NCBI RefSeq assembly: GCF_943787955.1
Contig: NZ_CALSOK010000012.1
Coordinates: 2,619-66,618, forward strand
Source: an uncultured Paraglaciecola sp.
Lineage (GTDB): Bacteria > Pseudomonadota > Gammaproteobacteria > Enterobacterales > Alteromonadaceae
Reading direction: 5' to 3'
Length of the DNA stretch: 64,000 bases
Part shown: positions 16,644-31,944 of the stretch, piece after piece
How positions within the stretch are numbered: the stretch's first letter is position 1
Layout of the letters: each line of letters opens with the position of its first letter
Position numbers and translations under genes: made by a program
The notes under the pieces: generated by a model
Seen by the model: only the letters and a program-made list of their open reading frames with translations
Told to the model about the DNA's origin: nothing
Database searches by the model: none

Positions 16644-17536
16644 TATGATTTGCAGAGGGTAATATTATGTCAAAGTCACCTTTTATAGAATATGTTCGAA
16701 CTATTTTGCGAACCAAAAGGTATAGCATAAAAACTGAAAAGGCCTACCTTCATTGGATTAGGCGATTTATTTATTTCAACGGCAAGCGTCACCCTAAAGA
16801 TATCGGTGAACTAGAGGTTGAACAGTTTTTATCACATCTTGCCATAGCGCTAAAAGTCTCGCCAACGACTCAAAATCAAGCCTTGTGCGCCATCATTTTT
16901 ATGTATCGTCATGTGCTTAATATGGACTTGACTAATATGTCCTTTAAATTTGCTAAGACGCCTGTCCGTGTACCTGAAGTATTAAGTCATAATGATGCGA
17001 TTGCTGTAATCGATAAATTACGAGGGGTTCATCATACTATTGGGACATTAATGTATGGCGCGGGATTTCGTATATCTGAGGTGCTGAAGCTGCGCGTAAA
17101 GGATTTTGATTTTGAACGAAATACTATTTTTATTTTTCATTCAAAAGGCCAAAAAGACCGTGTAACCATGTTTCCAGAATTGACTAAGACCGAGATTACT
17201 AAACAAATTCAAAAAGTGGAGTGTATTCACCAAAAGGACATTGATGAAGAGTATGGACTGTCATCACTACCACCTGCTCTAATTCGTAAATATGGGAAAG
17301 CCGCTACTAACTTATCTTGGCAATATATATTTCCTTCAACTACACGATGTGTCCCCCTTACGATGGCTATGTATGCCGGCATCACCTTCACCAAACTGGG
17401 TTTCGAAAGGCCTTAAAGAAAGCAGTGCAAGAAGCAGGCATTTTAAAACGGGTTACATCACATACCTTTCGTAAGCGTCCGGTGATCCACGCCTAGCAGT
17501 CATCCATTATTCATTCGAAAATACTTCCTCACTGTA

Positions 17537-17845
17537 ATGGGAGGTATTATGAAGCATAAAACACTAGATGAATGGCAGAAATTGATAAGCCAACAACAAA
17601 CGAGTGGGTTAGCCATTGTTGATTTCTGTAAAGAGCACAGAGTTAGCACATCAAGTTTTTATAAATTTCGTGGGCGATTACAACAGCAAGTTAACCCGCC
17701 TCGTTTTGTAAAAGCTAGCAAGTCTGCTATCGACGCGACTATTCAACCATCAGTATCTGTCAGATTGGGCGAGGTTTCGTTATCTTTTTCGACGTCTTGC
17801 GAGCCTGTTTGGTTGGCAAGTTTCGTTAAGGCACTGCAATCATGA
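17537..17845 (+). CDS. tnpA: IS66 accessory protein TnpA
   Basis: WQKLISQQQTSGLAIVDFC...SSFYKFR HTH; first ORF of the IS. Confidence 0.88.
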   Translation: MGGIMKHKTLDEWQKLISQQQTSGLAIVDFCKEHRVSTSSFYKFRGRLQQQVNPPRFVKASKSAIDATIQPSVSVRLGEVSLSFSTSCEPVWLASFVKALQS

Positions 17846-18192
17846 GAATGTTCGTTGAGCCAGATGACATTTATTTGCACCTTGAGCATGTTGATTTTAG
17901 AAAGTCGATTAATGGCTTGCTGGCGATTATCGAAAGTGAATTAACATTAAACGCATTCTCCGGTGCATTATTTATCTTCTGTAACAAAAAACAAGACAAA
18001 CTCAAACTCTTATACTGGGATAAAACCGGGTTTGCATTATGGTACAAACGGTTGGAGAAACAACGCTTCAAATGGCCTAAGTGTGGCCAACTCAAACACA
18101 CTAATTTGAGTGAGCAGCAGTTAACATGGTTGCTCGGTGGCTATGATGTCGTTGGACATCGCAGCTTGGATTACACGGCCTCTGGGTTATAA
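17842..18192 (+). CDS. tnpB: IS66 accessory protein TnpB
   Basis: VDFRKSINGL, KLLYWDKTGFALWYKRLEK. Confidence 0.93.
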   Translation: MRMFVEPDDIYLHLEHVDFRKSINGLLAIIESELTLNAFSGALFIFCNKKQDKLKLLYWDKTGFALWYKRLEKQRFKWPKCGQLKHTNLSEQQLTWLLGGYDVVGHRSLDYTASGL

Positions 18193-18269
18193 CGTACGAT
18201 CATAAGTAGCATTTAACGATCACGTTTTAATCTAATTGAAAACAGTCACTTAGGGTTATAATAAGTGAC

Positions 18270-19766
18270 ATGAATAAAGCCCAACTACGCCAACAAATAG
18301 CCGAGCTTAGCAAGCAAGTTGAACGATTAGAAAGTCGCAATCAGTTTCTTGAAGAGCAGTTTCGTCTTGCCCAACAAAAACAATTTGGGGCGAGTAGCGA
18401 AGGTCACCCTGGTCAAGGTGAATTGTTTAATGAAGCAGAAGAGCTGGTTGCTGAAACACCTGTCGAAAAAGAAGACATCAGCTACACACGCAATAAACCT
18501 AAGCGTAAACCATTACCAAAAACATTACCTCGTGAAGTGGTTATCCATGATATTGCACAGGAAGATAAAGTCTGTGCTTGCTGTAACAATGAATTGCACA
18601 AGATAGGTGAAGACAAGACTGAAAAGCTTGAATTCATCCCTGCTCAAGTTAAAGTGATAGAGCATGTTCGTCCTAAGTATGCGTGTCGTGTATGTGAAAA
18701 GGACGGCATTAGCAATCACATCAAACAAGCACCGGTGCCACCTTCAGTTATCCCTAAAGGTTATGCGACACCAAGCTTACTTAGTCAGGTAATCACCAGT
18801 AAATATCAATTTGGGTTGCCACTGTATCGTCAAGAAGCGATGTTCAAACAATACGGTATTGAACTGAGCCGCAAAACTATGGCCGATTGGATGTTGAGGT
18901 GCGCTGACTTGCTCACACCGCTATATGACCATTTACACGAATTGATACTTAAGCAAGGCGTCATTGCCGCTGATGAAACCACCTTAAAAGTCGTCAGCGA
19001 AGATAAAGCGAAATGCTATATGTGGGTGTATACCTCAGGCGCCGACTCACCTGAAGGGAAATTACCCAATACTGACATCCCAAATATCGTGCTGTACGAC
19101 TATCAATCGAGTCGCGCGGGTCAATGTGCCGTGGATTATTTACAGGGTTACAACGGGTATCTACAAGTGGATGGCTATGCGGGTTACCACAAAACCCAAG
19201 CGACACTCGCAGGCTGTTGGGCCCATGCGAGACGTAAATTCGTTGAAGCCAAAACCGCACAGGGCAAAAAATCTAGCGGCAGAGCCGATTGGGCACTTAA
19301 CCATATTCAAAAGCTGTATCGTATTGAAACGCAAATAAAAGCGAGTGCACCTGATAACAGGCGGAAAGTAAGGCAGGAAAAGAGCACTATATTGCTCAAA
19401 CAGTTCGAAGCGTGGCTGATAAAATCAGAGTCGCAGGTATTGGCAAAAAGCAAATTAGGCGAAGCCATCACCTACTGCTTAAATCAGTGGAGTAAACTCA
19501 ACACTTACACCCAATATGGTCACCTGAACATCGATAATAACCGCGCTGAGCGCGCGATAAAACCCTTCGTCATAGGCAGAAAGAACTGGTTGTTTAGTCA
19601 AACGGCCAAAGGCGCTAAGGCCAGTGCCATACTGTACAGCATTATAGAAACTGCAAAGGCAAACGGACTAACGCCGTTCGACTATATGATGCATTTACTT
19701 GAACAAGTCTCGGTTCAAAACACCGATATCGAGCCACTGCTACCATGGCGATTTGCTAAAGACTAG
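18270..19766 (+). CDS. tnpC: IS66 DDE transposase TnpC
   Basis: Zn finger CACC...[47 protein letters not shown]. Confidence 0.96.
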
Positions 19767-22066: not shown

Positions 22067-22146
22067 TTCAGATGTCCTCTATTTGTAGGGAATTGATATA
22101 GGCTTCGACAAAACGTTGCGCATAAACTTCCATCGACACAAAGGAA

Positions 22147-23215
22147 TATAGGTAAAATAAAACGTCATTTTTCCTAAAATTAAATTACATGATGCCTTAT
22201 ATTTTCCATATTGACATCTATTTCATATTCTTAAGGGAGTGAAATTCGGCTATTTTTCGTTTATTAATCAACTGTTTCTACGTAATTCAGAATTCAAGAC
22301 AAGCGCTTCCCGCTGTTGTGCAAACCAGCTCTGAATACTGCTTATGATGATGAACGGCTTTTATTCAAACAGACTTATCTGAGGCGGTGCTCGACTTTGT
22401 GGGGGCAATAATTCAACGACTTCGTCATTTTTTGTATTCAGGTGACTGAGTATCTTTTGGATCACCAATGGATGTGCAAATCGGCTTTACTGCCGATTTG
22501 TCAATGCTCGCTATAACCTTAACTGCACCAGCGCGATGCTCACAGGTTTCAATGTCGATGTTAAAAACCCGTTTAAGTCTTTGCGCCTAGGTCATCGATT
22601 AGTGTTTTGTGCCCGTGTTTTTTCCTGCCCTGTCGGCAAGGCTTGTTTAGTCTTATTTCGTAAAGACGGCGTTATTGTCACGCGGTGCCGACTGTTTGGT
22701 GGAGGGCCACCCCGTGGAGGGCCACCCCGTGGAGGGCCACCCCGCACAAATACGCCATGTACTAATTCATCAGGAATGAATTAAGCCAACCAGAGGTTGC
22801 CCGTAGGGTGAGAAACAGGAACGTTTCACATCTAAGCGCCTCAGATTAACGCGGGGTCTGGGTACCAAGGCCGCTAAACGGGCAATAAATTCCAGCGGCT
22901 CAAAGTGCACATGACTGTGCCGGTCACCGGTGGTGCCGTCACGGTAGGGTGTTTTTAGTTTGGAACGCACCTTAGGGTAAGTCGTTATTGCCAACCTTTT
23001 TTATGATACCCCAGAGCGGGACTCTCTTCACAATAAGCAACGGCACAGCCTTTCGAGTTTACCCCTATCCTGTGAGTTGCTCATGACACCTGCATGGAGA
23101 CTGAAGCCTGCCACATTTGCGGCACAGCCTGACGCAAGCCCCTGCTCTGCCATAGGTGCAATGTTTTTTTCGTCCTTGCTGTTTGCCTGTAGCGATGCGA
23201 TAAGTAATGGATTAC
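22147..23215 (-). mobile_element. Degenerate IS91/ISCR-family (Y2 HUH rolling-circle) transposase 3' half plus oriIS-like end, copy 1
   Basis: Minus-strand fragments in order: SITYRIATGKQQGRK, AGFSLHAGV..KLERLCR, SRSGVS*KRLAIT, LKTPYRDGTT..FEPLEFIARLAALVPRPRVNL, HGVF..PNSRHR, MT*AQRLKRVFNIDIETC. The element ends GACGTTTTATTTTACCTATA. Confidence 0.85.
22699..22743. repeat. 15-bp tandem repeat GTGGAGGGCCACCCC x3
   Basis: Read directly. It is an in-frame insertion within the transposase HGVF-APNS motif. Confidence 0.95.
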
Positions 23216-23217
23216 CG

Positions 23218-24645
23218 CTATAGCGTTTTTTTTATTTTCTTGTCGACAGCAATAAATGAAAAATTTATACACATCTCATCATTACTACCAAAACCTCCGT
23301 AAATTGGGTATTCCCAGGGATTGGTATATTCGCATTCAATGCTGATCTTGTAATCTTTTAAATCTTTTTCAGGTAAGACTTTGGGTTTGTGAAAGGTGAA
23401 ATTCCTTTGCCAGTTTAAATCCCAATTATTGATTGTTAGTAATCTTTCACGGTTACCCAATGGATCATCAAGAAATACTTTTCCGGCCTTTCCGTAGCTG
23501 TGCATATGTATATTTGCAGAGTGTAGTTCCAGGTTTTTTATTTCTTTGGATTTTATTTTAAGTATTGACAGAACCCGCCGTTGAATTTTCCTAAAATTTT
23601 CTGTTATTGAATAACTTGCTTCTTGTTTAGAGGGAATTACCATGGTTTTATTTCCCTTGCTATTTAACCATTTTCTATTTGTAATTGTTACAAAGAACCC
23701 GGGTTTTTTAACCTCTTTCTTCGTTATGAAGTGCATTGCGCTGTTTTTATCTGATTCGCCTGGAGCAAACGCTGAGTAATAATGCATTTGTGCGATGATT
23801 AATGCACCAGGTTCAATTGGAATGCCTGTGTCTTTAGGAAATTGAATGCCATTCATTCCTGGAGCCCAGTGTGAAAGAAAATTGATTCCACTATTTATTT
23901 TTCTGCTTAATCCATCTTCAAGTTTGTCTAATGCTGCACGCACACTGGGGTTGCCTAAGCGATCAGGTGCTCCCCCCCCGAAACATTCATAACCTGATCC
24001 TTCTTCCTCTGATTCCATTTTTCTTAAATGAGGAGCAATCTCGGGGGTAGCAGTAAATAATATTAAGTGGTGTATGACTTTTGCGTTTCCCGGTATGGCT
24101 CTTAACCCCGTAATATAAGTCTTCTCTTTCTCTGGCCATTCCATCAAGAAGCAGTGATAGTCGTCTTTTTTATTCTGATTAGGTAAATAACTGTTGCCAT
24201 TGTTAACAATAACTTCTTTATCTGATTTAAATGTTGAATTCTGGGCGGTATAACTGAGTATATTTTTAACTTTTATTAAAGCATTGTTTCGTGCGTAATT
24301 GTTTTCTCCCCATTGTGTGAAAGTACGTATCTCTTCTTTATTGAGAGAGTAGTCATCCTCATATTGTATATGACTTGGCTCTGCCAGCCAGGGCGGCATT
24401 CGGCGCTCTTCTACAGCCGATACCATGGCCGGTCCAAATTTGTAAGCTGTCTCAGGATTTTCAAATGAAAATGATATGCCTGATTCGGAATGACACAGTA
24501 GACAATGATTTTGAAGTATTGGGGTAATATGTTCTTCAAAGGTAATGTCGGCAGTGGCTTTTAGGCATATCAGCGCCGCTGTTGTAATGACTAAGAGTGA
24601 TTTGGTGATTCTCAACCTATCTGGCTTCCACTTGTTGCATAGCAT
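23218..24645 (-). CDS. Secreted copper type II (PHM/DBH-like) monooxygenase with N-terminal c-type heme domain
   Basis: Signal-like N-terminus, CLLCH heme motif and RMPPW. Copper ligands: IHHLILF, AQMHYY, IHMHSYG and DEMCINF. Confidence 0.8.
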   Translation of the reverse strand: MLCNKWKPDRLRITKSLLVITTAALICLKATADITFEEHITPILQNHCLLCHSESGISFSFENPETAYKFGPAMVSAVEERRMPPWLAEPSHIQYEDDYSLNKEEIRTFTQWGENNYARNNALIKVKNILSYTAQNSTFKSDKEVIVNNGNSYLPNQNKKDDYHCFLMEWPEKEKTYITGLRAIPGNAKVIHHLILFTATPEIAPHLRKMESEEEGSGYECFGGGAPDRLGNPSVRAALDKLEDGLSRKINSGINFLSHWAPGMNGIQFPKDTGIPIEPGALIIAQMHYYSAFAPGESDKNSAMHFITKKEVKKPGFFVTITNRKWLNSKGNKTMVIPSKQEASYSITENFRKIQRRVLSILKIKSKEIKNLELHSANIHMHSYGKAGKVFLDDPLGNRERLLTINNWDLNWQRNFTFHKPKVLPEKDLKDYKISIECEYTNPWEYPIYGGFGSNDEMCINFSFIAVDKKIKKTL

Positions 24646-25234
24646 TTATTAACTGACTTTTTGATTCAGAGTTGAGGTGAGATGCGTAACGAAAAACGAC
24701 TTTACCTTCTTTGTTGACCAATAAAATCAATGGTACAGCAGATACATTTAGTTCTGTTAGCAGGTTAGAGCTTGCTTCTGTATAAAAGGCATGTTGATAT
24801 TTTGAGTAGAGCGTGTGTTTTTGAATATAAGTTCTGGCATTTTCATCATTGTTATCATTGTTATCATTGTTATCATTGTTATCAATGTTAATTGATGCAA
24901 AGTTTATCAGTGGAAATTGATCTAAAATCGGATCTAAATCCCATATGATACCCGCGCAGCTATGGCACCAGGGTGCCCAAAATTGAATTAGTGTAGGGCT
25001 TTGAGGCAATTGACTTTGTTTACCCTCCACGATAGTTTTGAGACTGTGATTTTTGGGTATTCGTTGTTCAGAGATTTGGTTTTTAGAAGAGTGTTCTTGA
25101 TGCAACGGGTTTGATGGTTCTTTGGCCGCAAAGGTATTTTGAATCACAAGGGTGCTGGCAGTAATTGCCATAAACATGACTAAAGTAACTGGTACAGGCT
25201 TAAGTTTTTTCTTGGGAGTTCGTTGAGTTGTCAT
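24617..25234 (-). CDS. TlpA/thioredoxin-like periplasmic redoxin
   Basis: N-terminal TM/signal segment, LIQFWAPWCHSC, VSAVPLILLVNKEGKV. Contains (CATTGTTAT)x4 at 24847-24882, encoding NDN repeats. Confidence 0.85.
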   Translation of the reverse strand: MTTQRTPKKKLKPVPVTLVMFMAITASTLVIQNTFAAKEPSNPLHQEHSSKNQISEQRIPKNHSLKTIVEGKQSQLPQSPTLIQFWAPWCHSCAGIIWDLDPILDQFPLINFASINIDNNDNNDNNDNNDENARTYIQKHTLYSKYQHAFYTEASSNLLTELNVSAVPLILLVNKEGKVVFRYASHLNSESKSQLINAMQQVEAR

Positions 25235-25643
25235 ATCGTGTACGATTTATATGCTTGGGTTGAGTAATTGTTAGGATAATTATTATACAGAAGATGTAGC
25301 ATTAGTCTTTACCTACGTAAATTGTTTGTGGGGTCTATATTCATTATTGTTGAAATAGACTTATTTATAAGACTATCTAATGCTGCTAATCAATGGAAAA
25401 AGTATAGCTTGAAAAGGTGGGAGACGTATCCTTACACTACGGTAGAAGCTACGGTAAAGGGCAGCTATTCCATACTTGCAGATTGTCGTATTAAAGGAAA
25501 TTGGGCTAGCCTAGGTAAAACAAAGGGAAATTAATGGGTCCGTTGTAAGCGCTGGGGAGTTTTATCTTATTATGTAAAATACATTTACCAACTGCTCATA
25601 GCATTTTTTTGCTGAAAAGATTATTGAAAATTAGACTTGAGTC

Positions 25644-28600
25644 TTAGTTCCGGACCACCTTGAAATTTTCTGGACCCACTCTAGTTAGCCTATAAGTCGG
25701 TCCTACAGGAAAATCGCCTTTGATGACTTGAGTTTCACCGGTAGATCATTTCACTTCAATAGTGGATACGTTGCCAAACTCAGCCAGGCCAAAGTGAAGA
25801 GTTGGTGCATCAAATGATAGGTAGCCACCGCTGGTTTTGAGTTCTCGAATTTGCTTAAGTGAATCTTCAGGTCCGTAATGAATAATCACTTTGGTACCAA
25901 TACCAAAGTGATTCCCTATATAGTCTCACAGTTCAATATCAATGCTGTTGCCAGAGTCCATTTGATTGAGATGAAAAATTGGCAAGACGTCAAAGGGGAC
26001 TGTGATAATGTCCTGATCACCATCGCTATCTATATCGAGGAACGAGAATGCTCCTGCGGTTAGATGGCTGGTTAAACCAGCTTTTTCGGTTTGGTCAACA
26101 AAATGTTGGCCCTCTATATTGCGTAAGAATTTATTGGATGCCCATTCTTTTTTAATATTCACGCCATTAACTACATAGACATCCTGGCATTGATCGTTGT
26201 CGAGATCAGCAAAGCGTGAGCTCCAGGACCAACCGGTAACGTCCAAACCCCAATCGACAGAGTTTTCTGTAAAGCGCCCATCGGTTTCACAAGTAAACAG
26301 TAGATTTAGTCTTTTTACTACTTCGACATACGGAGTTTTTGGTTTTTCACTTTCCTTTACACGCTTCTCAAGGGTTGGCAAAGTTGGGCAAGTTCTTCCC
26401 ATCGTGTTGAAAACAACGTGCAATATTTATTTTCCTCAGCCCCTTTCAATTAAGGTCGAGCCTTGAGACGGAATAGATTAGTGGTAATGCAATCTTTTTG
26501 GTCCAGGGGGTTGCAAGGTTCAGGCTGGCAAATGGCGTGGGTGCTTATACAGCTTAATGCAAGTTGGCTCTGAGCTCACAATGTTGTCGCCATTTGTTGC
26601 TGCTAATCTCCTTGCAGGCCTTTTCATTGGGTTTGAGGTTTAAGCGTGCTCGCTGACTGGGTTTGTTGCCTGTGGTCTGGGTGAGGAAAAGCTCCAGAGA
26701 CAAGTCATTATTGATGTCAGCTGAGTCGTAACTCATGCTGGTGGAGCCGGATTTAAGTGATAGATTGTGTTCGCGCATAACCAGATTCAGTTCGCCAGAA
26801 CCGTTACCAAAAAACAGACTATCCGGCACGCCAAAATCATTTGCAAAAATGATGTCCATATCACCATCCATATTCAGATCCGAAAATAATATCAAGAGTT
26901 TTGCTCCAGGCGGATCCGGTAAGAGTTCAGCTTGGTAACCAAGAAAACTTGGACGTAATAGTACGTTTCTGGATCGGTCGGTCGTGCGTCTATGTTCTTG
27001 CGTAACATAATTGCCGAGAGCGATTTCCAGCAGTCCATCCTTGTCGAGATCTCCAAAACCGACAGATAGTGCGAAGTCAGCCTCAACTTTGGGTAAAACG
27101 TGTAACTGGGTTGGTGGGAAATGACCTTGCTGGTTATACAATACAAAATTGCCTTTTTTAAATGCAGAAAAGAACACATCCAGCCATCATTGTTAAGGTC
27201 AACCCGCGCAGTAGTGAATATGGTTGTGTCCTCGAACCCATCAAACCCGAGACTGTGTTCGACGTAGTATTGCACCACATCCATTGCATATAAGCGAAGC
27301 TCGTTGTTGACTTTGATTAATAAATCGGTGCGCCCATCGTTATATACATCTCCGGTGGCGATGCCAGCTATTTATATAAACGGTAACAAACCGTGATGCA
27401 TCGATGGACGCGGTAGGTAACCATCTATCCCCATTTGCACGCTGTCTGTGCGTCCGAAAGTTAATTCGTTGCCGCCCTGGCGATCATTATAGGGGCGGTG
27501 TTGTACCTGCAATTGTGGAGTGCTTAGAGATGGTAAATCTTGAAAGGCTAAGGCTGTAGTCTTTAGATCATTAATTAATTTGTCATCACTTGAGCGGTAG
27601 GGAGTGTTTCGCTCGATCATTGTAATCTCGGTGCCGTTGTCTTCGGAAAAGGCTTCATAAAATAATTTCAGATTACGTGCTTGCACATATTTACCAACAT
27701 AGCTCGCTGTGAATCCATCAGCAGCACCCATACCGACTAACACAACAGCAATCGTGGCAGAAACTCTCCAGGAGATTGCATTGCCAATAATTGAAAACGA
27801 ATACACACTGAAAATTCCCAGGGTAAATAACAGCACCATCACATAGCTGGCAGGTAAGCCCGCAGCATATAAAGCCGCACTTATGGCTACGCCAGAGGCG
27901 ATAGGTACCGGCAAAAATAAACCGAACATGGCCGTCAGCCTAATGAATAGCAATTTCTTCCAACGTTTCACGTATTCGATATTTGCAGTAATGGTTTCCC
28001 AGGGCAACACACTGACCAGCAATGCTCCCAGCAGGCCTGCCAGCATCATCAGGGGAATGATTACTCTTATGATAAACCACAGATTATTGGCATAGGCTTT
28101 TGGATACCACAGTGAAGTATGCAGCCAGCTATCTTCTTGTTCGATGTTGATGCCAGCGGGATTGATATCGATTTCACACTGGTCTTCATGGTTTTCCTGG
28201 GCAATGGGCCAGCGTGAAAACAAATATTGGCTCAACAGTGGGATAAGAAGTAAGATGAAGCCAGTGCAAAAATTAGTTTCTGAACCACAAAGCGCAGTGG
28301 TAATAAAGTGAACATCATGATTAACATAATCACATTTAATGTGGGCGAGCTAATCATTGTCGCCAATGTTGTCTCGATGCGTGTCCCCGCATCATGCATA
28401 CCACGAGCAATAGGCGCAAACACCCAGAGGTGCCCCAATAGCGCCCCAAAAAAAGTTATTGGCAAAATGCCCTTTAAAGTAACGTACGCGAAATAGAGGA
28501 ATTAATGTTAAAAAAGCGGCTCCCAATAACACCCCAAAAATCATTCCTTGCTGATTGGTATGAGCCCAGTTAATGTTGGTGCAGGTTACCTTTTTCCATA

Positions 28601-28790
28601 ACGGGAAGTGCGGCTTAACAGGAAATACAGCTTCGAAGCTCAATGGATCCTCAAAGCGTAGGTCAGCTATCATAGCAGTCTTTTCATTTAAAGCTGGATA
28701 GCGAGAGCCGCTCCAGAATAGGCCCATCAAAATCATGATGACCAGTAATGACAGGGTTAATTGCTTGTTATTGTTTATGACGCTCAACAT
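25644..28790 (-). pseudogene. Decayed fusion gene: permease domain, FG-GAP/CRTAC1-like repeats and ASPIC/UnbV C-terminal domain
   Basis: Fragments in register: YPALNEK..EDPLSFEA; GAPLGVC; MISSPTLNV; LFLPVPIA; FGDLDKDGLLEI; FSDLNMDGDMDIIFANDFG; WSWSSRFADLDNDQCQDVYVVNG; then GNHFGIGTKV..GGYLSFDAPTLHFGLAE, with two TGA stops, ending at 25644. Confidence 0.78.
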
Positions 28791-29058
28791 GCTCTCAGGT
28801 ATCGATTAGTATTATGCAAGGACATGAGTAACGGCTAAATGGTATTTTGTTTATGTGTATCTTATAAAGTAGCTGATTAGGTCCAGCTACTTTCATACCA
28901 AACATACAAAAGCTTAAACTTATATTGAACTATACCAATAACATCATTTGTTAATAATGCCGACATGAATTTAGTAGGAATCCTAGAAAATTCAACAATT
29001 CTGTCCCGTTTGCTATTATTTGCCCTGATTTAGCATTTAATTTATTAGTGAAAGGAAT

Positions 29059-30064
29059 ATGACAGCCAATAACAACAACGGCAGTAATCTTCAGTGGATT
29101 TTACCCTTTGTATTACTTACCGCCTTGTTGCTAGTAGAGTTACTGGTTGTGGGCCTGCGGGTGGATGCGCAAACTCTCGCAAGTAAGGACGGTGTGCTGG
29201 CATTGGTGCTGTCGAATATGGGCCACCTTCACGATTTATACTTGTCTTTGTGGTGGCCTTTCTTAATTTATTGACACCTCGTTTTAAGGTTCACATCCAG
29301 CTATTTTGGCGAGCCAGGGCCAGCGTAAAAAGTGGTATTGGTTGCTGTTGCAATGCATTGCTTTTATTTTCTCACCATTGAAATATTTGCAGGCAGTGCT
29401 GTAACGAGCGATTCGGCTTTGCTGATTGCTCTGGGATGGTTTTCGCGGCTGCTGTTATCGCCGTGTGCTCCCTTTTATATTGGGGCCGCTCAGTTTTTGG
29501 AATATTTTTTTAGCAAAAGAAAAATCAGCTTTGCTTGTAGCGGCCGCTATTGGTGTATTGACTTTTTTTGTCGCCAATTCTAACAGTTTTGGTATCCTTT
29601 GGACAAGATGACCTCCACAGTTTCTCAATGGTTTTTGGAGCTGATGTTTGATCGGGTTCATGTTGATAAAGTTAATTTAGCCCTTAGCGCGGAAGATTTT
29701 ATCGTCATCATTGCGCCAAGTTGTCCCGGGTATGAGGGCATAGGATTAATCTCCATATTTACAGGCCTTTATCCTTGGGTATTTAAGCGGGAATTCCATT
29801 TCCCCCAAGCCTTCTTACTGTTTCCCATTGGCATTATTTCGGTCTGGGTATTAAACGCGCTGAGAATTCATCACTGATTGCGATGGGCGCTACCTTTTCG
29901 CCTAAAATTGCCTTGGAGTGTTTTCATGCACCGGCAGGGTGGATCTTCTTTACTGCGAAGGCTGTTGGCTTATTCTTGCTATCTCAATGTATCAAATATT
30001 TCTCTAATGAACACGTCGTTAAGGACATGCATTCTGATGATGTTGAACTGTCAACGAATTTGAG
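29059..30064 (+). pseudogene. Fragmented exosortase (resembles exosortase E of the VPEID-CTERM type), 3'-truncated
   Basis: Multi-TM fragments with IAPSCPGYEGIGL (catalytic Cys), VLNALRI and FHAPAGW. Several stops and frameshifts, cut at the oriIS-like end. The subfamily call is tentative. Confidence 0.65.
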
Positions 30065-30724
30065 TATAGGTAAAATAAAACGTCATTTTTCCTAAAATTA
30101 AATTCCATGATGCCTTATATTTTCCATATTGACATCTATTTCATATTCTTAAGGGAGTGAAATTCGGCTATTTTTCGTTTATTAATCAACTGTTTCTACT
30201 TAATTCAGAATTCAAGACAAGCGCTTCCCGCTGTTGTGCAAACCAGCTCTGAATACTGCTTATGATGATGAACGGCTTTTATTCAAACAGACTTATCTGA
30301 GGCGGTGCTCGACTTTGTGAGGGTAATAATTAAACGACTTCGTCATTTTTTGTATTCAGGTGACTGAGTATCTTTTGGATCACCAATGGATGTGCAAATC
30401 GGCTTTACTGCCGATTTGTCAATGCTCGCTATAACCTTAACTGCACCAGCGCGATGCTCACAGGTTTCAATGTCGATGTTAAAAACCCGTTTAAGTCTTT
30501 GCGCCTAGGTCATCGATTAGTGCTTTTGTGCCCGTGTTTTTTCCTGCCCTGTCGGCAAGGCTTGTTTAGTCTTATTTCGTAAAGACGGCGTTATTGTCAC
30601 GCGGTGCCGACTGTTTGGTGGAGGGCCACCCCGTGGAGGGCCACCCCGTGGAGGGCCACCCCGTGGAGGGCCACCCCGCACAAATACACCATGACTAATT
30701 CATCGGGAATGAATTAAGCCAACC
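30065..30724 (-). mobile_element. IS91/ISCR-family remnant, copy 2 (near-identical direct repeat of 22147-22791)
   Basis: Aligns with copy 1 from TATAGGTAAAATAAAACG to GAATTAAGCCAACC, with scattered substitutions. Carries the 15-bp repeat x4 (30618-30677). Cut on the right by IS3. Confidence 0.88.
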
Positions 30725-30787
30725 TGTTGTGGTTGAATTAACCGGACACTTCAATAAAGGATTATAATCCTGTTAATTGAGGTGAAT

Positions 30788-31075
30788 ATGACTAAACGAA
30801 CAAATAAACATTATCCCGCAGAATTTAAACAAGAAGCGGTCGCTCTGGTAATAGAGCAAGACTATCCAATCGTACAAGCTGCTGCATCTTTAGGTGTGAC
30901 AGACAAACTACTTTACAACTGGGTAGCTAAGCATAAGAAACAGGCACTAGGTGATGCATTATCTGGTGATGAACGGGCAGAGTTAATTCAGCTCAGGAAA
31001 GATAGTAAACGTCTACAAATGGAGCGTGAAATCCTAAAAAAGGCCAGTGCCTTCTTCGCGAAAGAAATGAAGTAA
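30788..31075 (+). CDS. IS3 transposase OrfA
   Basis: HYPAEFKQEAV HTH; ends LKKASAFFAKEMK. Confidence 0.9.
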   Translation: MTKRTNKHYPAEFKQEAVALVIEQDYPIVQAAASLGVTDKLLYNWVAKHKKQALGDALSGDERAELIQLRKDSKRLQMEREILKKASAFFAKEMK

Positions 31076-31113
31076 GATATTCTTTTATAAGTGAGCTTGA
31101 TGCGAAGTATCCG

Positions 31114-31944
31114 GTGTCAGTTGCTTGTAAAGTGATGGAAGTGAGTTCGTCAGCATACTACGCATGGCTAAAAAAACCTGGTGAACTCATTAGCGCTCAA
31201 ATGCTAAGACTGTATCGACGAGCCAAAGCATTATTCAAGGCAAGTCGAAACAGTTTAGGCAGCAGAGAGCTTGCTAAAGCACTACGCAAAGAAGGCTTTG
31301 AAATAACGCGGTATCGCGCCATTAAGTTAATGGAACGGCTTAAATTAGTTGTGACTCAGCGAATAGCTTATAAAGTGACAACCAAGCGCAAACACAGTGA
31401 TGCTGTGGCTGACAACTTGCTAAATATGAATTTCAATCCTGTTGGACCCAATCAAATTTGGGCGGGTGATGTGTCCTATTTAAAGACTGGTGAGGGCTGG
31501 TTGTACTTAGCCATTGTCATGGATTTGTATTCACGCCGGATTGTAGGTTGGCATATATCAAAACGCATGACGCGTGATTTGGTCGAGCAAGCACTGACAA
31601 AGGCTCATAATTTACGCAAACCACCAAAAGGTTTGGTGTTTCACAGTGACAGAGGCTCTCAGTACACGAGTAAAGGCTTTAGAAATCTACTGTCGCGATT
31701 AGAGTGTCGAGCTAGTATGGGAGATGTTGGAGCTTGCTGGGATAATGCTGTTGTGGAGCGCTTCTTTGGAAGTTTAAAGCATGATTGGTTGTTTAAAGTA
31801 CCGCAGCCCACTCGAACACATATGCGAGAAGATGTTGCTAGGTACATGAAATATTATAATGTTGAGCGACTACATTCAGCTAATTTGGATCAATCGCCAA
31901 TTGAATTTGAAAACTCCTTTAGAAAAGTGTCCGGTTGGACTTGA
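31114..31944 (+). CDS. IS3 transposase OrfB (DDE), probably expressed by -1 frameshift from OrfA
   Basis: WAGDVSYL, VFHSDRGSQY, CWDNAVVERFFGSLK. The -1 frame is open back across the orfA stop. Confidence 0.92.
   Translation: MSVACKVMEVSSSAYYAWLKKPGELISAQMLRLYRRAKALFKASRNSLGSRELAKALRKEGFEITRYRAIKLMERLKLVVTQRIAYKVTTKRKHSDAVADNLLNMNFNPVGPNQIWAGDVSYLKTGEGWLYLAIVMDLYSRRIVGWHISKRMTRDLVEQALTKAHNLRKPPKGLVFHSDRGSQYTSKGFRNLLSRLECRASMGDVGACWDNAVVERFFGSLKHDWLFKVPQPTRTHMREDVARYMKYYNVERLHSANLDQSPIEFENSFRKVSGWT

Follow-up and report, generated by a model that had tools for sequence, protein, structure and literature searches.

A 64,000-nucleotide (nt) stretch of the genome of an uncultured Paraglaciecola sp. 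(contig NZ_CALSOK010000012.1; hereafter the window) carries three features in a row on its minus strand: an open reading frame (ORF) for a copper monooxygenase of the PHM/DBH type, an ORF for a TlpA-like thioredoxin, and a broken gene in which a permease is fused to an FG-GAP beta-propeller and a UnbV/ASPIC domain (Table 1). The best explanation of this arrangement is very probably that two unrelated units stand side by side in an accessory segment rich in insertion sequences (IS). In all likelihood the three neighbours are not one system, and a dead fusion gene adjoins an intact two-gene operon by chance. An earlier note on this DNA had proposed a single permease-TlpA-monooxygenase module for metal delivery, thiol reduction and catalysis. 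Its description of the sequence is accurate: the three genes follow one another on the minus strand, the thioredoxin ORF has 29 nt in common with the longest monooxygenase ORF, the first gene is fragmented across about 3.15 kb (3147 nt with at least four frameshifts and four in-frame stops), and the motifs GAPLGVC, SPTLN and LPVP are all present, on invariant columns of the fusion-family alignment. The true overlap between thioredoxin and monooxygenase may be nil and the junction possibly a 1-nt spacer, since an in-frame TTG at 24615, 1 nt past the TAG stop of the thioredoxin gene, also yields a normal signal peptide when taken as the start. The stop of the dead fusion (25644) lies 410 nt from the thioredoxin start (25234). 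A promoter and terminator scan of 22900-25800 was uninformative, because sites were no more numerous than in shuffled sequence.

The proposed module did not hold when the three genes were followed into other genomes. On the monooxygenase side, 72 loci with flanks of up to 10 kb at either end came from a scan of species-representative genomes; on the fusion side, 83 loci were available, consisting of 80 metagenome loci and three earlier ones. The fusion was found at none of the 72 monooxygenase loci (tblastn with P0001, the closest intact fusion homologue, against the 10-kb flanks), and neither the monooxygenase nor the thioredoxin was found at any of the 83 fusion loci. The exosortase, whose co-occurrence the earlier note had also suggested checking, was absent from both sets. 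At the genome level, a full-length fusion was present in one of the 16 monooxygenase-bearing genomes (G055), where the match lay on contig C56 and no fusion was present within 10 kb of the monooxygenase on either side (L071). Among a sample of 400 genomes of the same class, the fusion occurred in eight and the monooxygenase in one, with both found only in the genome studied here. The earlier note had staked its module on the co-occurrence of these homologues, and because they do not co-occur the module is refuted. As a separate observation, one monooxygenase locus (L066) has an unrelated protein with propeller and ASPIC domains only, 4 kb from the monooxygenase.

The link between thioredoxin and monooxygenase is of a different kind, and this part of the earlier proposal stood: the two are functionally linked, the thioredoxin being the sole conserved neighbour (17 loci), and the fusion has no part in it. 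At each of three distant monooxygenase homologues looked up, the next gene upstream was thioredoxin-like, either 4 nt away or overlapping by 4 nt, and the fusion was absent. When ORFs within 6 kb of the monooxygenase were clustered across loci, one recurrent neighbour emerged, the thioredoxin, which at 16 loci invariably shared the strand of the monooxygenase and lay a median of 33 nt upstream, often with 0-4 nt of spacing or overlap. A hidden Markov model search yielded one further, partial copy; a second, at the edge of a contig, came from tblastn. In total, 17 loci, belonging to Proteobacteria and Pseudobacteriovorax, have the thioredoxin directly upstream in the same orientation, with the motif WC[HRGN]SC. 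In a midpoint-rooted maximum-likelihood tree of 66 monooxygenases, all proteobacterial and Pseudobacteriovorax sequences having upstream sequence carry the thioredoxin, except L013, and a single Gemmatimonadota clade of 41 sequences is without a linked copy. Oligoflexus sequences, on the opposite side of the midpoint root, are also without one. The linkage was lost once in the Gemmatimonadota. The window monooxygenase is sister to Pseudobacteriovorax (support 100/99).

The monooxygenase matches the Pfam family Cu2_monooxygen (E 2.4e-10, 41.1 bits against a cut-off of 30) and falls just below the cut-off for Cu2_monoox_C (E 8e-5, 22.5 bits against 23). An AlphaFold2 (AF2) model of the protein (predicted local distance difference test score, pLDDT, 87) retrieved only PHM or DBH structures among its top 31 Foldseek matches, including PHM 8dsl (E 3.5e-17) and DBH 4zel (E 4.4e-17), and the HH and EMC motifs aligned with those of human DBH in a profile comparison. 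Like PHM and DBH (PF01082 and PF03712), the modelled enzyme has a two-domain beta-sandwich fold, with a target-normalised TM-score (TMt) of 0.64-0.71 to PHM, and possesses the HH...H (CuH) and HxH...M (CuM) ligand sets. Residue conservation was read from alignments of 15 and 48 sequences. The CuH ligands H192, H193 and H288 are invariant, as are H382 and M458 of the CuM site, and H380 is retained in at least 90% of the 48 sequences. Also invariant are C48, C51, H52 and M83-P84-P85, which together form a class-I-like haem-c motif (CxxCH...MPP). Apart from the CxxCH pair, the only invariant cysteines are C165, C221, C438 and C459. The pairs C165-C221 and C438-C459 presumably match two disulfides of PHM, one around the HH motif and one beside the methionine ligand.

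The N-terminal 100 residues of all ten monooxygenase homologues examined gave weak matches to cytochrome-c families (Cytochrome_CBB3, PccH, Haem_bd and PSCyt1), all under the gathering cut-offs. That the enzyme joins a c-type cytochrome domain to a complete dicopper core is thus a prediction, well supported at the level of motifs. The window enzyme differs from the animal enzymes in being bacterial and periplasmic, with approximately 15% sequence identity, in being paired with a thioredoxin gene, and in having a predicted CxxCH...MPP cytochrome-c domain at its N-terminus, which has no counterpart in the animal enzymes. With this haem-c motif fused to it, the enzyme may use an electron donor other than ascorbate. 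No paper on this bacterial monooxygenase family was found in the literature, bacterial PHM/DBH homologues included. Two sets of related sequences within the genus were also noted. Paraglaciecola sp. MB-3u-78 encodes a 297-amino-acid (aa), 5'-truncated homologue (L072:9980-10873) with no haem-c domain and no upstream thioredoxin; by inspection of the alignment it looks nearer to P0214 than to the window protein, and it is too short for the tree. In two other genomes of the genus (G002 and G017), ORFs of 655-666 aa resemble the monooxygenase over its residues 30-204 only, at 24% identity, and possibly represent another protein having the cytochrome-like N-terminal region in common.

The partner protein matches Thioredoxin_8 (32.7 bits against a cut-off of 27) and Thioredoxin in Pfam. 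Like the periplasmic thiol-disulfide oxidoreductases TlpA, ResA, CcmG (DsbE) and StoA, it is exported or anchored and has a thioredoxin fold and a WCxxC motif, and it scores best to dsbE, StoA and ResA and to the StoA structure 3erw. None of the NCBIfam equivalog cut-offs was reached (dsbE, 29.9 bits against 123; ResA, 17.9 against 170; StoA, 24.3 against 210). Its WCxSC active site differs from the motifs known for CcmG, ResA and TlpA. The window thioredoxin also differs from these oxidoreductases in its setting, with no ccm, res or cox context and a coupling to the gene of one specific enzyme. Since the genome already encodes a separate canonical DsbE/CcmG elsewhere (128.6 bits), the one beside the monooxygenase is a further, specialised copy. 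Its gene exceeds that of near-identical strains by 27 nt, in frame, the difference being nine additional residues (NDN x3) in a repeat that encodes (NDN)n.

The operon encodes a periplasmic TlpA-like thioredoxin followed by a predicted cytochrome-c/PHM-DBH-type dicopper monooxygenase, and in the working proposed for it both proteins would be exported. The thioredoxin would keep the CxxCH cysteines of the enzyme reduced for haem attachment while the disulfides C165-C221 and C438-C459 form. The haem-c domain would then take electrons from the respiratory chain and pass them to CuH and on to CuM, replacing the ascorbate of the animal enzymes, and CuM would activate O2 and hydroxylate a periplasmic substrate. 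That the role of the thioredoxin is haem maturation of the monooxygenase is a tentative proposal, to which we give slightly less than an even chance. If this working is right, the pair would show how a copper chemistry typical of eukaryotes is powered in the periplasm without ascorbate; with its two genes it is in any case a simple target for biochemistry.

Several observations weigh against this account and the separation of units on which it builds. The case for haem binding consists of motifs and of family matches below threshold, and the neighbourhood samples were limited to 72 and 83 loci, many of them on short contigs. Gemmatimonadota monooxygenases keep CxxCH without a linked thioredoxin, so haem attachment does not strictly depend on the partner, which could act otherwise. 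The terminal branch of the window monooxygenase is long (1.06, against a median of 0.31), and the three nt differences from near-identical strains are all non-synonymous (three, with no synonymous change), a combination compatible with relaxed selection in this strain.

There are two potential explanations that draw on these observations. The first is that the pair is real and that the thioredoxin does something other than prepare CxxCH; possible tasks are the isomerisation or proof-reading of the structural disulfides, action on a substrate that contains cysteine, and protection from peroxide escaping the copper enzyme. Besides the Gemmatimonadota homologues, this reading can call on the matches of partner homologues to AhpC-TSA and Redoxin models, on the WCxSC active site and on the equivalog cut-offs that the thioredoxin fails to reach. 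It is nevertheless less likely, as the invariant cysteines of the monooxygenase are limited to the CxxCH pair and the two PHM-type disulfide pairs, the nearest named families by score (DsbE, StoA and ResA) are reductases of exported proteins, and the thioredoxin motif has two cysteines and is thioredoxin-like rather than of the peroxiredoxin type.

The second explanation is that nothing in this segment is functional in this strain and that the pair is the least decayed part of dying foreign DNA. Pseudogenes or IS debris flank the pair on both sides, and the long branch, the three non-synonymous changes against no synonymous one and the 27-nt repeat expansion in the thioredoxin would all fit. 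However, at least eight disruptions have accumulated in the 3.15-kb fusion compared to none in the adjacent 2.0-kb pair, which argues that selection still protects the pair and not the fusion; at the density seen in the fusion (approximately 2.5-3.5 per kb), about 5-7 disruptions would be expected in the pair after an equal time of decay. All family-invariant residues are retained. In sister strains (L162-L166; 97-98.6% nt identity), IS3 joins window position 26243 and the interval 26244-30872 is missing, and with it the exosortase, the right repeat and all but approximately 600 nt of the fusion. The thioredoxin and monooxygenase are intact in these strains, and the pair is intact in seven of seven related contigs despite the IS-mediated loss alongside. 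Decay of the whole segment is therefore improbable. The sister strains are too close for a ratio of non-synonymous to synonymous substitution rates (dN/dS), and the thioredoxin comparison is disturbed by the 27-nt indel. Mapping of the downstream DNA of the relatives (L162) onto this genome is ambiguous, as the junction falls in a dispersed repeat and at contig ends.

Finally, a single envelope system made up of the fusion, TlpA and the monooxygenase, partly decayed here, is scarcely credible: the genes are co-oriented and adjacent in the window, and near-identical strains still have a 3' piece of the fusion ahead of the pair, which makes the adjacency older than those strains, and G055 has a full-length fusion elsewhere besides its monooxygenase, but the neighbourhood recurs at none of the 72 and 83 loci, co-occurrence is restricted to one of 16 genomes and to this one among 400, a dead fusion is separated from an intact pair by the 410-nt gap, and the copper ligands are histidine and methionine, so that no thiol-based hand-over of copper is apparent. 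Two unrelated units remain the preferred reading, and a three-gene redox system of the envelope should not be carried forward from what is a chance adjacency in mobile, decaying DNA.

The fusion gene has no function in this strain. Its reading frame changes near 28417-28407, 28259 and 27180, with at least one more change in the badly degraded interval 26554-26424, and it is interrupted by in-frame stops at 27374-27372 (TAA), 26556-26554 (TAA), 25928-25926 (TGA) and 25748-25746 (TGA), the last of which stands in place of a family-invariant tryptophan. A different genetic code in which TGA encodes tryptophan was considered and rejected, because the gene also contains TAA stops and frameshifts and its intact neighbours read normally in table 11. 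Reading through the disruptions gives 1054 aa, in which Pfam recognises ArsP_1 (residues 85-355, 40.7 bits against a cut-off of 32.3, profile positions 22-281 of 294), three FG-GAP_3 repeats (E 5e-28) and a C-terminal UnbV_ASPIC domain (E 5e-11). In a tblastn search of the window, residues 1-1044 of P0001 were covered by four pieces in three frames. No intact paralogue of the fusion was found in this genome.

Elsewhere the architecture survives. The read-through, reconstructed and used as a query as the earlier note had advised, retrieved 619 homologues, more than 100 of which are intact proteins of approximately 1050 aa with the same three Pfam families and 32-40% identity. PF03773 is present in the precomputed annotation of all the intact homologues. 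The fusion of permease to propeller and ASPIC domain described by the earlier note is thus real, and is encoded by one gene in other genomes. These proteins bear only generic names (YraQ/UPF0718, FG-GAP-like or VCBS repeat-containing), and no paper on the permease-propeller-ASPIC fusion family was found in the literature; the family is a widespread, catalogued and uncharacterised membrane protein. An alignment of 15 members has an invariant PLGVCVNCAAP loop, SPT-N and LPVP motifs, DxDxDG-type loops and an insert with six invariant cysteines. In the model of P0001 (pLDDT 76), a helical membrane domain built of two repeats is joined to a propeller, a cysteine-rich helical insert and, at the end, a beta-sandwich, and the top Foldseek match of the model is murine CRTAC1 (9etn; E 6e-19, TMt 0.66), in agreement with the CRTAC1-like propeller that had been proposed from the window sequence.

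The N-terminal approximately 400 residues of the fusion match the model of the ArsP/UPF0718 (YraQ) permeases (PF03773) above its cut-off and have a conserved cysteine pair in their PLGVCxNCAAP loop. Unlike these permeases, the fusion adds approximately 650 extracytoplasmic residues. No ars-type genes were seen among the recurrent neighbour clusters of the 83 fusion loci, where no search aimed at ars genes was made. The FG-GAP propeller has loops of the DxDxDG type and is combined with a UnbV/ASPIC sandwich at the C-terminus, as in CRTAC1 and bacterial ASPIC-UnbV FG-GAP proteins. In contrast to the soluble, secreted CRTAC1 type, the propeller of the fusion is tethered to a polytopic permease and has a helical insert with six invariant cysteines (approximately residues 730-825 of P0001), and no EGF-like domain appears among the Pfam hits. 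An intact protein would be a permease of the ArsP_1 type in which the GVCxxC loop is conserved and to whose outer face a calcium-type, CRTAC1-like propeller and an ASPIC domain are attached.

Two genomic contexts recur among the fusion loci. At eight loci, and also at that of P0003, which is among the closest homologues, the fusion lies within a cluster of the lasso-peptide type with genes for PqqD, a Transglut_core3 protease, an Asn-synthase-like cyclase, an HPr-kinase-like protein, sulfotransferases, an Asp/Asn beta-hydroxylase and a nucleotidyltransferase (NTP_transf_5). HPr-kinase, sulfotransferase and nucleotidyltransferase genes are components of lasso-peptide clusters, which normally include a 'D' transporter (PMC8498205). 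A simple motif test found no ABC-transporter signature in the eight metagenome loci of this context (L083-L159), and the Pfam list of a further locus (L173) holds no transporter apart from the fusion, which may replace the exporter in these clusters. The gene of P0001 itself comes after a PqqD and radical-SAM cluster. The lasso and PqqD contexts hint at a role in the export or sensing of modified peptides, as a lead only, and the recurrence of the lasso context suggests a role of this kind that can be tested. Combining both units, it is conceivable, at not quite an even chance, that the pair represents an undescribed class of bacterial periplasmic PHM/DBH-type dicopper enzyme, fed by a built-in c-type cytochrome in place of ascorbate and matured by a dedicated thioredoxin, and that the fusion may be the missing transporter or receptor of marine lasso clusters. 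Neither lead depends on the broken fusion copy in the window. Intact fusions in lasso-type clusters were noted at L083, L118, L124, L140, L145, L150, L151, L159 and L173-L176.

In the other context (16 of the 83 loci), one or two Sel1-repeat proteins are encoded within approximately 30 nt downstream of the fusion and one or more small secreted proteins upstream; a prepilin peptidase and a GspG-type pseudopilin are often encoded nearby, as in a type II secretion system. Loci of this kind include L003, L130, L138, L139, L143, L144, L147, L153-L155, L158 and L161. The unannotated neighbours of fusion homologues at L002 and L003 were considered as possible monooxygenases and rejected, having no similarity to it in pairwise BLASTP; the L002 neighbour has no Pfam match, and the two at L003 are Sel1-repeat proteins.

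The segment that holds both units is accessory: the monooxygenase is absent in 24 genomes of the same genus, and dispersed repeats and IS elements lie on both sides. The two copies of a dispersed repeat (98% and 91% identity to each other) bracket 7.3 kb between 22791 and 30062, and more than ten partial copies occur genome-wide, on at least eight contigs; the two bracketing copies contain 15-nt tandem repeats of three and four units. The left copy is abutted by a transposase fragment and the right copy is followed by IS3. Divergent from the fusion is an exosortase-family pseudogene, which matches the NCBIfam signature exo_archaeo (E 5e-11) and the Pfam family Exosortase_EpsH (E 5e-8) and is closest to exosortase E of the VPEID-CTERM type (exo_VPEID, E 5e-24, under the cut-off).

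Table 1. Features of the window in and around the thioredoxin-monooxygenase pair and the dead fusion gene.
Feature	Position	Strand	Basis
Left copy of a dispersed repeat of approximately 650 nt, with 15-nt tandem repeat	22144..22791		Repeat search, TRF
IS91-type (Y2_Tnp) transposase fragment, abutting the left repeat	22770-22994	-	Y2_Tnp, E 8.6e-4
Exported PHM/DBH-type monooxygenase, intact, 475 aa; signal peptide, haem-c-like domain and dicopper core	23218..24645	-	Pfam, alignments, AF2, Foldseek
TlpA/ResA/DsbE-like periplasmic thioredoxin, intact, 205 aa; WCHSC, N-terminal hydrophobic anchor or signal	24617..25234	-	Pfam, sequence
9-nt tandem repeat, 5.1 copies, encoding (NDN)n in the thioredoxin gene	24845..24890	-	TRF, comparison with L162
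Pseudogene: PF03773 (ArsP_1/UPF0718) permease, CRTAC1-like FG-GAP beta-propeller and UnbV/ASPIC	25644..28790	-	Three-frame reading, Pfam, tblastn
Exosortase-family pseudogene with frameshifts and in-frame stops	29059..30095	+	Three-frame reading, profiles
Right copy of the dispersed repeat of approximately 650 nt, followed by IS3	30062..30724		Repeat search
IS3 element after the right repeat	30782-31944		At least 40 copies in genome

Further to the left, in the region 16667-19766, an integron-integrase gene matches no more than the first 224 positions of a 315-position profile, and an IS66 transposase gene comes after it at 18270-19766.

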